Assembly (NCBI GenBank): GCA_964291265.2
Contig: OZ219747.1
Location: 32,001-96,000, forward strand
Source of the DNA: Alphaproteobacteria bacterium
Lineage (GTDB): Bacteria; Pseudomonadota; Alphaproteobacteria; SP197
Reading direction: 5' to 3'
Length of the DNA: 64,000 nt
A program made the translations under genes and the position numbers. Below the pieces are notes generated by a model. The model did no database searches. It was not told the origin of the DNA and saw only the letters and a program-made list of their open reading frames with translations. Shown here one piece after another: positions 32,022 through 38,987 of the stretch; positions within the stretch are counted from its first letter, which is position 1; each line of letters begins with the position of its first letter.

Positions 32022-32402
32022 GGGACCGGCCGGGAAGGCCGTTGATGACCGGTGGAGCCCGCGGCACCCTGTCGACCGGACGGCACGCCGTCCCTCGCCA
32101 CCGAATCCGCTGCTGGCGGAGGGCGATCAGGCATCGGAAGCGCCTGTTCCCGCGTCCGTGCGAAGGTCGAACGCGATGTCGGGGATTCCGGTGACGGGCA
32201 GCACGGTGACCTTCTCGTCGAGCCGGCAACCCTCGTGGCCGGGATAGACGATCCAGAGATGCCGAATCGGCAGGGCGCGCAGCACCGCGTGCATGCTCCC
32301 CGTCATCGCCGGGCGCATCCTGGTCCTTGAATTCCATCCCCCACAAGCGCTCCGCGGGCCTGCCAGACAAGGTCGAGTTCCGCGCCTGTGTGCGTGCGCC
32401 AG

Positions 32403-32531
32403 GTAAGCGTTCGCTCATCAGGGGATGACGGCGCCTGAGAGAGGGCCGAGCGAATACCGGGGCAAGACCGCACGCTTGCGGGTCATCGTGCATGAGGTCT
32501 CCCGGGCGGCCTTCCTGCCAATAGGGCTTCG
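32403..32531 (+). repeat. ~128-bp direct repeat, copy 1 (IS66-like end module)
   Basis: GTAAGCGTTCGCTCATCAGGGGATGAC...CTTCCTGCCAATAGGGCTTCGG, closely matching 33986-34115. Confidence 0.9.
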
Positions 32532-32843
32532 GCAGGCAGCGAAGCGGTCTTGGAGGTATCGAAGGCGGGGACGAGGGCGGGTTGGTGACCTTGAAGTTTG
32601 TTGCCAAAATCGCGGGTGATCACTAGTCTTCTATCAGTTCCACAACCCAGCATAGGGAGGGGCCATAGCTTGGGCTGAGGCCACCCGAGTGAAGTACGGG
32701 GGCATGGCGGCGACCTGAGGAACAAGCGCCATCGAGGTCTTGACGCCTGGCAGGCCTCACCCCGGGTCAGGCGCCGCGATTGCCGCCTTGGTGCTGTTCG
32801 GCGTAGGGTGCCGCCATGACGAACACCTTCCCTCTTCCAGCCC

Positions 32844-33989
32844 GTGAGCACGATGCCCGTTGAAACGCCGGGGTCTCGCTCGGTGAGACTTCCGGTGAAT
32901 CGACACGATACGCTGTTCCGGGCACTGGTCTCCGAACCGTCCCGTGCCGCTTCTCTGCTCACCGACTACTTGCCGCGGAAGGTGGCTGAACTCCTCGATC
33001 CCGAGGCGCCGTTCGAGGCGGTTGGGGAGAGTTTCGTCGACAAGGCCGCCCGTACCACCCAGTGCGATGCGCTGTTCCGGGTGAGATTGAAGGACGGCAA
33101 AGATGCGCGCCTCTACGTGCTGCTCGAACACAAGAGCTACGTCGACGCCGAGACGCCGCTCCAGCTTCTGGGATACATGGTCAACATCTGGCGGCGCGAG
33201 ATCGAGCGGAGCAAGAGCGAGCGGAGCAAGAGCGAGGGCGGCGGGAACGACATCAAGCTGCCGGCGATCATCCCCCTGGTCTTCTATCACGGCCGGGGTC
33301 GCTGGAAGGCGGCGCGCTCGGTGCTGAAGATGATCGACGCGCCCGAGAAGCTGAAGCCGTTCGTCAGGGAGTTCGCCTATGTGGTGCACGACCTCGGGGA
33401 GATGGCGCCGGACCGGCCGTCGACCTCGCCCGAGGTGCGGTCCGCTCTTCTGGCGCTCAGGTTTGCCTTTGCCGAGGAGGTACCGCCCGATCTTCTCGAC
33501 GTGATCATGGACGGGCTGCTTGCAGGGAGCGACTTCGAGCACCATATTGTGCGCTACATGACCGAGCACCAGGGCCTGACGCCGGCCATGCTGGAGGCGT
33601 CTTTGCGCCGGACGAAGCCGGACCATTGGGAGGTGTTGATGGGCACGATCGCACAAACCTGGGTCGAACAGGGAAGATCCGAGGGACTCGAGAGGGGAAG
33701 AGCCGAGGGTATCGAGAGGGGAAGAGCCGAGGGTATCGAGAGAGGACGAGCCGAGGGTATCGAGAGAGGAAGAGCCGAGGGACTCGAGAGGGGACTTGAA
33801 CGAGGCCGGAGTGAGGCCCTCGCGGAACTTCTTCTTCGTCAACTGTCCCTGCGCTTCGGTGATGTGCCGGATGCGGTCCGCGAGCGGGTGCGCGGCGCGT
33901 CGGCCGCCGAACTGGAGGCCTGGGCGGAGGCGGTGCTGGCTGCCCCAAGTCTTGATGATGTGCTGGCCGCCAGGCCCAGGCAGCGGTAA
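32844..33989 (+). CDS. Rpn family (RpnC/YadD) PD-(D/E)XK nuclease with DUF4351-like C-terminus
   Basis: HDTLFR, CDALF, YVLLEHKS, LQLLGYM, PLVFYHG, EGxERGRA repeats, LLLRQLSLRFG; real start may be GTG near 32895. Confidence 0.92.
   Translation: MSTMPVETPGSRSVRLPVNRHDTLFRALVSEPSRAASLLTDYLPRKVAELLDPEAPFEAVGESFVDKAARTTQCDALFRVRLKDGKDARLYVLLEHKSYVDAETPLQLLGYMVNIWRREIERSKSERSKSEGGGNDIKLPAIIPLVFYHGRGRWKAARSVLKMIDAPEKLKPFVREFAYVVHDLGEMAPDRPSTSPEVRSALLALRFAFAEEVPPDLLDVIMDGLLAGSDFEHHIVRYMTEHQGLTPAMLEASLRRTKPDHWEVLMGTIAQTWVEQGRSEGLERGRAEGIERGRAEGIERGRAEGIERGRAEGLERGLERGRSEALAELLLRQLSLRFGDVPDAVRERVRGASAAELEAWAEAVLAAPSLDDVLAARPRQR
33668..33812 (+). repeat. 24-bp coding tandem repeats (EGI/LERGRA) in Rpn
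   Basis: GAGGGTATCGAGAGGGGAAGAGCC-like unit repeated ~5 times. Confidence 0.9.
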
Positions 33990-34115
33990 GCGTTCGCTCA
34001 TGAGGGGATGACAGCGCTTGGGAGAATGCCGAGCGAAAACCGGGGCAAGACCGGACGCTTGCAGGTCATCGTGCTTGAGGTCTCCCGGGCGTCCTTTCCT
34101 GCCAACATGGCTTCG
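33986..34115 (+). repeat. ~128-bp direct repeat, copy 2
   Basis: GTAAGCGTTCGCTCATGAGGGGATGAC...; its TAA (33987-33989) is the Rpn stop codon. Confidence 0.9.
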
Positions 34116-34117
34116 GG

Positions 34118-34252
34118 GTAAGCGTTCGGTCGCGCGGTGATTGTTGGTGATATTCGACCGGTTGAGGATGCTTGCCAGCACTTTCTCAGACGGTTGTCAG
34201 CCAGTCCCAAAATCAACCAAAATCAGCCGTCACCGCACGGCAGAACGCTTAC
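34118..34252. mobile_element. 135-bp MITE with IS66-type TIRs
   Basis: GTAAGCGTTCGGTCGCGCGGTGA vs reverse complement of right end GTAAGCGTTCTGCCGTGCGGTGA (20/23). Confidence 0.85.
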
Positions 34253-34863
34253 TGCGCCAGACGTGTGGACGGGACACGTCCATGAGGCGAATGGCCTGCT
34301 CCATGGCGAAGCCCTCCCATGATGCACCGAGCTTGGGGTGGGACTCCAGCTGCCCGGGTGTGGCCATGGTGTGCAGGGAGTGAAGAAGGCCGCTGTCGCG
34401 GACGCAGAGCCTGGGCGCCTTCAACAAGCCGCTTGCCGACGTTCGCGTACCAAGCCGGCACCAGCCTGATCATGCAGGTCCCGCCCAGAATCTCGAGGTC
34501 GCGGCGGACCGAGTGATCGGAGATGCCGAACGACCGGCCAAGCTCGGAGAAGTTCGGCGCCCGCCCATGATAGTGGCTCACCATCAGCCAGAGGCGCCGC
34601 ACGGTCTTGAGCCGGAACCAAGATGCCAAGGGCCGGAAAGGCGTGCCGGGACAGTCCTGAAGCACCAGCAGTGATCCATGAAACCGTCGCGCAGTGAACC
34701 CGGGTCGCGGTCCTCGTCCTCGGCAGGCCGATGTCCGCGGGCGGGCCACCGGGCTGGAAGCGGATGCAATTCGATCCCTCCGGTTGCCCCTTGATACGGT
34801 GGCGAGCGGCGCATACCGTTCCCTCCGGCAAGGGGAAGCAACGTCGTGAAAACGGAACGGAAC

Positions 34864-37808: not shown

Positions 37809-38987
37809 ATGCGCCAGCGGTCCATGTTCGCCTATGCCTGGGACATTGCGGAATGCGGTGTCGGCCGCTCGGTCGACGAGTTCCTCGATCTCGGACTCAA
37901 TGCCGTCACCATGGCGGCGAGCTACCATGCCGGAAAGTTCCTGAGACCGCGCGGCCACGGAAAGATCTGTTTTCCCGAGGACGGCACCATCTACTTCCGC
38001 CACGACCCCGATCGCTACGGCGCCATCAGGCCCCTGCGCAACACCCTTCTCGATGAACGCGATGTTCTCCGCGAGATCTGCGACAGCGATGCCATCGAGG
38101 TCAACGCATGGCTGGTGCTTCTTCACAACACGCGGCTTGGCAGCCTTCATCCGCAAGCGTGCGTCGAGAACGCTTTCGGCGATCGCCTGATCTACAGCCT
38201 GTGCCCGTCCTCCCCTGACGCCCGGGCCTATGCATGCGCCCTGGCCGCGGACGTCAGCCACGCCTACCCCGTGAAAGGGCTGTCGCTCGAGACACCGGGC
38301 TTTCTCCCGCCTGTGCACGGCTATCACCACGAGTTCGGCCTCGTCCGACCCAACGCCTGGCTCGACAACCTCCTCGGACTGTGTTTCTGCCCCCACTGCC
38401 TTGAACGCGCCGGCGCGGCCGGACTTGACGGCCACCGTCTGCGCGGGCGGGTGGCACGTGACGTCGAGGCCTATCTCGCGGGCCATGTCGATCATCCCGA
38501 AGACATGGCCGAAGCATTCTGGCTTGCCGATGTGGCGACCGATCGCGAGTTCGTCGCCTATCTTGGCGTACGCTGCGACACGGTCTCCTCGCTTGTGGCA
38601 GAGCTGCGCGATGCCATCCGGAACGATGTCACCCTTGCGGTGATTCCCTCGGTTGCGAGACCGACGGCCCAGGCATGGTACGAGGGCAGCGATCTTGGCG
38701 CACTCGCCCGTACGGCCGGTTGCGTGGAAGCCTGTTTCTACGAGCCTTCGATCGATCGCATTGCTGCCGACCTTGCCGATGTCGGTCGCCGCATTGCCGG
38801 GGCCGGGACCTTGCGCGGCGTGCTGCGCCCTGCGTGGCCCGATCTCGAGACACCGGACGCCCTGCGGGACGCGGTCCGACTGCTCGAGAGTGCGGGCGTA
38901 GACGGCATTTCCTTCTACAACTGGGGGTTCCTGAGGCCGCGGAATCTTGATTTCCTGCGCCAGGCCCTGACCGGGGAAGGCCCGTGA
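37809..38987 (+). CDS. Hypothetical protein, probable TIM-barrel/glycoside-hydrolase-like fold
   Basis: FAYAWD, AASYH, AWLVLLHN, LCPSSP, GYHHE, CFCPHC, GISFYNWG; within the ABC operon. Confidence 0.7.
   Translation: MRQRSMFAYAWDIAECGVGRSVDEFLDLGLNAVTMAASYHAGKFLRPRGHGKICFPEDGTIYFRHDPDRYGAIRPLRNTLLDERDVLREICDSDAIEVNAWLVLLHNTRLGSLHPQACVENAFGDRLIYSLCPSSPDARAYACALAADVSHAYPVKGLSLETPGFLPPVHGYHHEFGLVRPNAWLDNLLGLCFCPHCLERAGAAGLDGHRLRGRVARDVEAYLAGHVDHPEDMAEAFWLADVATDREFVAYLGVRCDTVSSLVAELRDAIRNDVTLAVIPSVARPTAQAWYEGSDLGALARTAGCVEACFYEPSIDRIAADLADVGRRIAGAGTLRGVLRPAWPDLETPDALRDAVRLLESAGVDGISFYNWGFLRPRNLDFLRQALTGEGP

Follow-up and report, generated by a model that had tools for sequence, protein, structure and literature searches.

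The genome of an Alphaproteobacteria bacterium (SP197; GCA_964291265.2) very probably harbours a transposase-less cassette in which Rpn genes lie between IS66-type ends, present at four sites, likely moved by IS66, and likely varying in gene number through recombination. Genes of the rpn family are patchily spread and often multi-copy, and the available text of Zhong et al. (bioRxiv 10.1101/2023.05.02.539157) describes them as lacking terminal repeats and target duplications, with arrays arising by direct duplication. The unit described here is a counter-example, in one genome only: its ends are defined, relatives have the empty alleles, a transposase candidate is resident, and dispersal and tandem amplification of Rpn would be linked in a single element. 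The scope is one genome, movement within it, and known building blocks; the spread of Rpn genes put forward in the first-pass annotation of this DNA is upheld within the genome (four sites) and not between genomes.

The unit in the window and its empty sites

The sequence examined is positions 32,001-96,000 of contig OZ219747.1 (G000:C2:32001-96000), a stretch of 64,000 nucleotides that we call the window. The unit spans 1850 bp (32403-34252 of the window) in the order module-spacer-Rpn-module-MITE, with the following features:

32127..32402, minus strand: downstream remnant of the DUF4143 host gene, frameshifted (three-frame translation against relatives)
32395..32402, no strand: left target-site duplication TGCGCCAG (single copy in 7/7 empty alleles)
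32403..32533, plus strand: module 1, 131 bp, the outer end of this insertion (sequence comparison)
32534..32843, plus strand: spacer, 310 bp, a patchwork of remnants (sequence comparison)
32844..33989, plus strand: Rpn (YhgA-like) gene, RpnL of 381 aa, intact in the window copy (PF04754, DUF4351)
33639..33989, plus strand: predicted in-frame RpnS, 116 aa (GGAGG at 33629-33633 followed by ATG; analogy with Zhong et al. 2023)
33986..34117, plus strand: module 2, 132 bp, a direct repeat of module 1 (alignment)
34118..34252, minus strand: 135-bp MITE, with 34252 the IRL or transposase-upstream end (transposase orientation, identity to IS66 ends)
34253..34260, no strand: right target-site duplication TGCGCCAG (sequence)
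34253..34638, minus strand: upstream remnant of the DUF4143 ATPase-like host gene, N-terminal half missing (DUF4143 match; homology to relatives stops at about 34638)

Stacked IS66-type ends had been noted here, and GTAAGCGTTC is indeed present without mismatch at all four places, at 32403, 33986 and 34118 on the plus strand and at 34243-34252 on the minus strand; the only further match in the window, at 38168, has a mismatch. The module reported as duplicated on either side of Rpn is duplicated, but it is slightly longer than the ~128 bp first given, the two copies (131 and 132 bp) being 89% identical. The 135-bp MITE at the right was recovered as described, with 23-bp arms that are 87% complementary, and it folds through its ends only. 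The GTAA of module 2 is the source of the Rpn stop codon (TAA), as the first-pass annotation had it, and paralogs without that end terminate in ...CACTGA. Rpn is the only gene-sized ORF within the unit with a Pfam match, and no clear sigma-70 site was found in a search for its promoter.

The modules and spacer appear to be assembled from older material. Over its first ~63 bp module 1 is similar to the 5' portion of an IS66-type MITE of older date, ~124 bp long, and a by-eye reading of the alignment places a degenerate inverted end at ~32466-32479; the 3' part of the module is matched nowhere outside the modules. Within the spacer, ~32585-32725 shows a match of ~70% to other IS remnants of the genome, which may be IS5-like and IS4-like, and ~32727-32843 is common to the regions upstream of other Rpn paralogs. 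A structured-RNA role for the modules was considered and dropped because their predicted folds are no better than those of shuffled sequences (z of 0.12 and 0.03).

Both 8-bp copies of TGCGCCAG adjoin the unit ends, in agreement with the duplication first reported. Among 874 end pairs around the window Rpn only one has an 8-bp match, and because that one is the unit's own pair the duplication is not a chance match. The insertion had been placed inside a DUF4143 gene; the assignment holds (E 6e-9), but the host is now a 5'-truncated and frameshifted remnant in this genome, and in relatives its frame is unbroken and roughly 390 aa long. The two flanks adjoin one another in 7 of 30 other genomes searched (18 of the 30 being same-genus), and all seven are of the same genus. 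In each of the seven a single TGCGCCAG lies within an unbroken DUF4143 ATPase-like frame, which is the empty allele that the first-pass annotation had proposed looking for, so the unit is a true insertion with an 8-bp duplication. The site of the four-gene copy described below (copy A) is likewise empty with a single 8-mer in two of three relative loci checked, and a search of five relatives did not recover the flanks of copies B and C. A contig of sequencing run X3, ~98% like the window flanks, skips the unit and carries 63 other letters at the site, and is not counted as an empty allele; the three runs, all from one study, consist of short contigs, too short to span the repeats.

Copies of the cassette, their Rpn genes and the growth of the array

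Other copies of the module and MITE had been suggested as a check, and the complete unit is found four times in the genome, with four different perfect 8-bp duplications (TGCGCCAG, TCATCCGG, GGTCCGTC and GATGATCC):

Copy W: the window copy, with one Rpn gene
Copy A, C2:3092790-3086228, 6563 bp: four module-spacer-Rpn repeats, then the last module and the MITE (five modules)
Copy B, C2:1601907-1597656: module-spacer-Rpn-module-MITE, made longer by an inserted IS66
Copy C, C1:40833-38865: module-spacer-Rpn-module-MITE

The general layout is therefore [module-spacer-Rpn]n-module-MITE, with n = 1, 1, 1 and 4, and the outermost module serves as the insertion end in all four. The second, unrelated IS66 in the MITE of copy B has its own 8-bp duplication and is the only other content in any copy. 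Module 2 of the window differs at zero or one position from the matching modules of B and C.

The cargo is likely an RpnL/RpnS toxin-antitoxin gene-within-a-gene and a candidate anti-phage system, by analogy with characterised members of the family. The window Rpn matches PF04754 (E 9.4e-41) and DUF4351 (E 4.7e-9), and has PD-(D/E)XK-type residues D22, D75 and E95-H-K97, of which aligned relatives keep D22 in 15/17, D75 in 18/18 and K97 in 17/18. It scores below the NCBIfam cut-offs of the E. coli-type models and has no match by sequence among solved structures. GGAGG followed by an in-frame ATG, an RpnS-like start, is present in all seven cassette Rpn copies, from which translation of RpnS may be inferred by the same analogy. 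The four-residue repeats number 11 in W (tract at ~33675-33806), 6, 7, 16 and 14 in A, 7 in B and 21 in C. For other members, the portions of Zhong et al. (bioRxiv 10.1101/2023.05.02.539157) available report RpnL toxicity, neutralisation by RpnS, phage protection, and a repeat number that sets RpnL-RpnS specificity. The cassette genes share with those RpnL/RpnS genes, as far as the same text describes them, the PF04754 nuclease, the DUF4351 tail, the internal start, the variable four-residue repeats and the tandem arrays. The copies amount to a set of near-identical Rpn proteins, of natural origin, in which repeat number varies and whose cross-neutralisation is directly testable.

The number of genes is likely altered when the 131-bp direct repeats recombine with one another, the simplest reading of the module sequences. 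Modules A2 and A4 combine 5' markers of the MITE-side module with 3' markers of the spacer-followed modules, mosaics of the kind predicted by unequal crossover, and module B1 has an outer-end marker on an inner-type tract. The first-pass annotation supposed that the unit grows by adding end-plus-cargo modules, and this part of it fails: the module occurs 11 times in the genome, always inside the four copies, and all 11 separate only the identical spacer-Rpn unit. Since the repeat is always this one module-spacer-Rpn unit, there is no capture of new cargo.

The Rpn genes within copy A differ from one another at 15-25 sites and from the single copies W, B and C at 10-25. Because A's genes are no closer to each other than to W, B and C, copy A may be the older source, with the single copies reduced from it, and not a recent enlargement. 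These distances do not fit recent in-place expansion of A from one unit, and call for diversity of older date or for gene conversion. The Rpn genes of B and C are near-identical sisters, with 4 differences in 957 sites. In a tree of the Rpn copies, strong support is limited to the pairing of B with C and to a group of six copies, and the order of events does not follow from it.

It is also conceivable, but improbable, that tandem units were added by the transposase, for example through insertion of an excised unit at an existing end, and not by homologous recombination; of the readings considered, this comes nearest to the module addition supposed in the first-pass annotation. There is a good IS66 end at every repeat boundary, AGGCAGCG-like 8-mers lie on both sides of the internal modules, stacked co-directional ends occur at other Rpn loci too, and the junctions of a triple Rpn array in another species each have an IS66-type end at a distance of 37 bp. 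However, the repeat takes in the 3' part of the module and the spacer with identical boundaries each time and never any new cargo, the hybrid modules fit a crossover inside the repeat, and a tandem Rpn array (L084) exists without these ends; direct duplication is also the origin ascribed to rpn arrays in the available text of Zhong et al. (bioRxiv 10.1101/2023.05.02.539157). There is very little likelihood that the four-gene array is an assembly artefact. No read or contig was seen spanning it, the runs being made up of short contigs and compared with the window copy only, but substitutions (15-25), spacer indels and repeat number all distinguish its four units from one another, and a perfect duplication of its own encloses the array. 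Recombination between the repeats remains our preferred account of the array.

The resident IS66 and its likely part in moving the cassette

An autonomous IS66 with matching ends had been named as something to seek, and the genome contains an abundant single-ORF IS66. A 2224-bp copy is filled by one 598-aa ORF, with no tnpA or tnpB, and the transposase matches PF03050 (DDE_Tnp_IS66) at E 1.8e-48 and NF033517 at 262 bits against a cut-off of 180. Two copies have a full-length, stop-free transposase. The seven long copies differ by 0.27% on average, from which it follows that the family moved recently. The IRL and IRR are alike at 21 of 24 positions, and the ends begin with GTAA. The GTAA ends and 8-bp duplications cited in the first-pass annotation as established for IS66 are borne out here, in that an exact 8-bp duplication accompanies 28 of the 149 end pairs inspected across the genome (~0.005 expected); among the 31 end pairs kept, no other duplication length occurs more than twice. 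Elsewhere in the genus, IS66 transposase matches at E 1e-50 are present in 3 of 22 other genomes.

The 135-bp MITE joins ~54 bp from the IRR of this single-ORF IS66 to 81 bp from its IRL (94% and 88% identity to the two ends), and its internal junction is present in the four copies only. Of the first 24 nt of the modules, 18-19 agree with the IS66 IRR (18 in module 1). The module does not come from the current single-ORF IS66; it begins with ~63 bp that match the older ~124-bp MITE family. The older family has 79 profile matches in the genome, 63 of them near full length, and five further Rpn paralogs each have a copy at their 3' end.

The shared ends and the common duplication length suggest that the cassette is likely moved in trans by the resident IS66 transposase. 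The earlier description of the unit as non-autonomous and mobilised in trans gains from the lack of an internal transposase and the presence of an IS66 with matching ends, with movement itself deduced from these. In the history that we favour, an older IS66-type MITE would have come to lie at the 3' end of an Rpn gene, and tandem duplication of the MITE-Rpn region would have followed. A deleted IS66, or an IS66 deleted later, would then have landed ~131 bp past one module, and the transposase would have used the IRL of that IS66 together with the outermost module, the latter standing in for an IRR, and carried along all that lay between. Some observations sit less well with this history. The module is without the subterminal sequence of the current IRR; neither a solo 135-bp MITE nor a module-plus-MITE copy is present in the genome, all cassette forms being gene-carrying, although the model allows use of the inner ends; and no parent array without a duplication is left, so that the order of events is a matter of inference.

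That Rpn is itself the mobilising enzyme, with the IS66-type ends as bystanders, is highly improbable, and the first-pass annotation's view of Rpn as cargo and not transposase is well supported. The window Rpn is annotated as Transposase_31 (Pfam), overproduced Rpn is described in the accessible part of Kingston et al. 2017 (PMC5350276) as promoting RecA-independent recombination with mobility left open, and TSD-bounded elements of this family, which make up 2.7% of the genome, contain 9 of the 13 near-full-length rpn loci, a count that is descriptive because the copies are related. On the other side, 24 Rpn-less elements (the 28 exact pairs less four) have the same ends and 8-bp duplications, paralogs without these ends show no such duplication, and the text of Zhong et al. 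(bioRxiv 10.1101/2023.05.02.539157) at hand reports no evidence for autonomous rpn transposition. In addition, copies B and C share a frameshift in the nuclease part, yet each occupies its own site with a perfect duplication, and movement therefore probably does not need an intact Rpn in cis. The same frameshift is present in the third gene of A, and gene conversion could alternatively have spread it among the three.

A separate consideration, compatible with the movement mechanism, is that the units are neutral junk of an IS-overrun genome, with their Rpn copies and repeat variation unselected; we think this somewhat unlikely. It would accommodate the frameshifted nuclease part in three of the seven Rpn copies, the places of insertion (W in a decayed gene, A in an intergenic position upstream of a clpS-like gene, B inside an ORF), the ~70 old MITEs in the genome, and the absence of any PADLOC model matching this Rpn. 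Against it, repeat-length changes are whole multiples of four residues in all copies, the RpnS frame is intact in all seven, even where the nuclease is broken (three copies), an intact Mrr-like candidate defence nuclease lies between the MITEs of another pair, and the cassette is found in gene-carrying forms only. IS66-mediated movement of an Rpn cargo is the reading we retain. More speculatively, and with rather less expectation that it will hold, the unit could be a mobile accordion in which each repeat carries a usable IS66 end, so that recombination and end choice would give cassettes of one to many Rpn genes with copy-specific repeat number and specificity; frameshifted copies would then be antitoxin-only donors, and MITE capture a general route to rpn dispersal and array formation in IS-rich genomes.

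Other genomes and known mobile elements

Searches of 22 other genomes of the genus gave a single marginal 40-bp match to the module and nothing more, and the module pattern had no matches in metagenome contigs, among which the Rpn query gave one partial locus. No GTAAGCGTTCG-like end lies within ~1.5 kb of Rpn at any of 18 same-genus loci. A scan for inverted plus direct repeats around 20 Rpn loci from 10 other genomes identified no true TSD-bounded element; the positive control was recovered, 7 of 200 shuffled loci matched, and so did one real locus, L084. We rejected L084 because the match is a palindrome at tandem-array junctions with an arm also outside the first unit. At L072, in the other species that has the triple Rpn array, Rpn lies between two ~124-bp MITEs with no duplication.

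The unit has the properties of an IS66 non-autonomous derivative, with ends like those of the resident IS66, an 8-bp duplication and no transposase gene. In IS66, 8-bp duplications are known (PMC3281130, in the part available), and the ISBst12 group comprises single-ORF IS66 elements, of which ISDge4 has GTAA ends, 8-bp duplications and a single ORF according to the text available of PMC12898284. The partner of the unit agrees with this group in its GTAA ends, 8-bp duplications and single DDE_Tnp_IS66 ORF, whereas the unit itself has no transposase, three ends stacked at one side, and one end taken from a different, older MITE family. IS1380 modules (ISEcp1, ISPme1) pair a true end with a secondary look-alike end further out. 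Like the unit, they carry adjacent DNA along (PMC9330008, as far as its available text goes). They are, however, autonomous and use variable chance ends, unlike the fixed MITE-derived secondary end of this non-autonomous unit; the unit has IS66 ends and no transposase, and its outer secondary end is used in all four copies. MICs are of IS4/IS231 origin. In MICs and tIS the IS ends enclose a passenger gene, as here, in the accessible portions of PMC3281130 and PMC9330008; MICs were described in Bacillus cereus with one pair of ends, and tIS keep their own transposase, which the window unit lacks.

In the literature searched, which was seen in part and covered few subscription journals, nothing describes IS66 ends or MITEs as carriers of rpn genes. 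Within these searches, single-ORF IS66, MITE composites moved in trans and secondary-end modules are known, and the Rpn cargo and the mobile array are new.

A similar plan is that of TIME-COMPs and integron mobilisation units, in which a passenger gene is flanked by short non-autonomous elements and moved by a transposase acting in trans (PMC13367494, in its available part). The window unit differs in that its ends derive from IS66 and not from Tn3, and it has a complete 135-bp MITE at one boundary and, at the other, a partial end from the ~124-bp family, where a TIME-COMP has two copies of one MITE; its internal direct repeats permit a gene array, and its cargo is a toxin-antitoxin and not a resistance gene. 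Elsewhere in the genome, a search of 2727 tests (~0.07 chance matches expected) gave two older MITE-bounded Rpn composites with 8-bp duplications, at C2:3000318-3002132 and, with a one-base slip at one end, at C2:3017695-3020825. The Rpn loci with a 3' MITE at C2:1901930, 1939032 and 3581466 have no matching duplication, and an 11.5-kb TSD pair with poor ends around C2:3018992 is treated as chance. Other MITE pairs carry the Mrr-like nuclease and surface-protein-like genes. The two older Rpn composites and the Mrr-like composite fit the TIME-COMP plan directly, and the elements at C2:3017695-3020825 and C1:217609-219144 are each bounded by two copies of one MITE.

Composite units and their cargo

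In sequencing run X3, a contig approximately 98% similar to the flanks of the Rpn cassette lacks the unit at window 32402-34257, and carries 63 other letters where the unit would be. Two further, older Rpn-carrying composites are present in the genome under study (G000), each bounded by approximately 124-bp IS66-type MITEs and an 8-bp duplication, together with three end-bounded composites containing other cargo:

G000:C2:3000318-3002132, L096, Rpn composite, duplication TGCGGGAC
G000:C2:3017695-3020825, L095, Rpn composite, duplication CGGAAAGG, counted with a one-base slip at one end
G000:C1:217609-219144, L008, two MITEs and an 8-bp duplication around an Mrr-like nuclease gene
G000:C2:3544634-3549609, L093, 8-bp duplication; ORFs resembling transposases and a glycine-rich repeat protein 364 aa long (labels by eye)
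G000:C2:3323751-3329400, L094, duplication matching at 7/8; a 1785-aa protein

The Rpn genes of L096 and L095 differ at 5 of 957 sites. The Mrr-like gene in L008 is intact, coding for 406 aa and matching PADLOC PDC-S02 (E 8e-137), and this candidate nuclease is a second defence-type cargo moved by ends of the same kind. By eye, the 1785-aa protein of L094 looks like a repeat-rich autotransporter.

Rpn arrays in other genomes

Rpn genes are also clustered at the following loci:

L147:4763-9113 (G035:C2), triple tandem array in another species
L084:3815-7284, tandem array
G009:C2:710000-750000, L040 and L041, about eight Rpn copies scattered through a shuffled array of paralogous genes

In the triple array the small proteins measure 94, 98 and 82 aa, and every junction is preceded, at a distance of 37 bp, by a doubled IS66-type end; no duplication enclosing it was found. 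At L084, where both Rpn genes are frameshifted, the junctions are palindromic about a 9-bp centre and look like element ends that abut. The paralogous genes in G009 are approximately 1 kb long and porin-like (labelled by eye), and the array contains long direct and inverted repeats; IS66-type ends were not found in it.

Resident IS66 forms and an unrelated repeat

Long forms of the resident IS66, and a second IS66 located in the MITE of cassette copy B, are represented by:

G000:C2:374818-377700, L001, common form, 2883 bp, with about 12 similar copies
G000:C2:1600202-1597760, in L003, second IS66, ends GTAACTGCCCAGG

The common form has a 660-bp insert close to the transposase gene start; judged by eye, this insert resembles the 5' portion of a group II intron. 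Many 4.1-kb copies have a second insert, all at one common site. The second IS66 has a frameshifted transposase and carries a small methyltransferase-like passenger ORF; relatives of this passenger region occur 11 times in genome G005.

Another repeat, starting GTAAGCGTTGACGGGCGGG, has no relation to the IS66 ends past its first nine bases. It forms direct pairs 781 bp apart, with an identical 12-bp upstream flank (G000:C2:485435-486216, 1367028-1367809, 3117886-3118667, 3769702-3772259 and 4090052-4090833).
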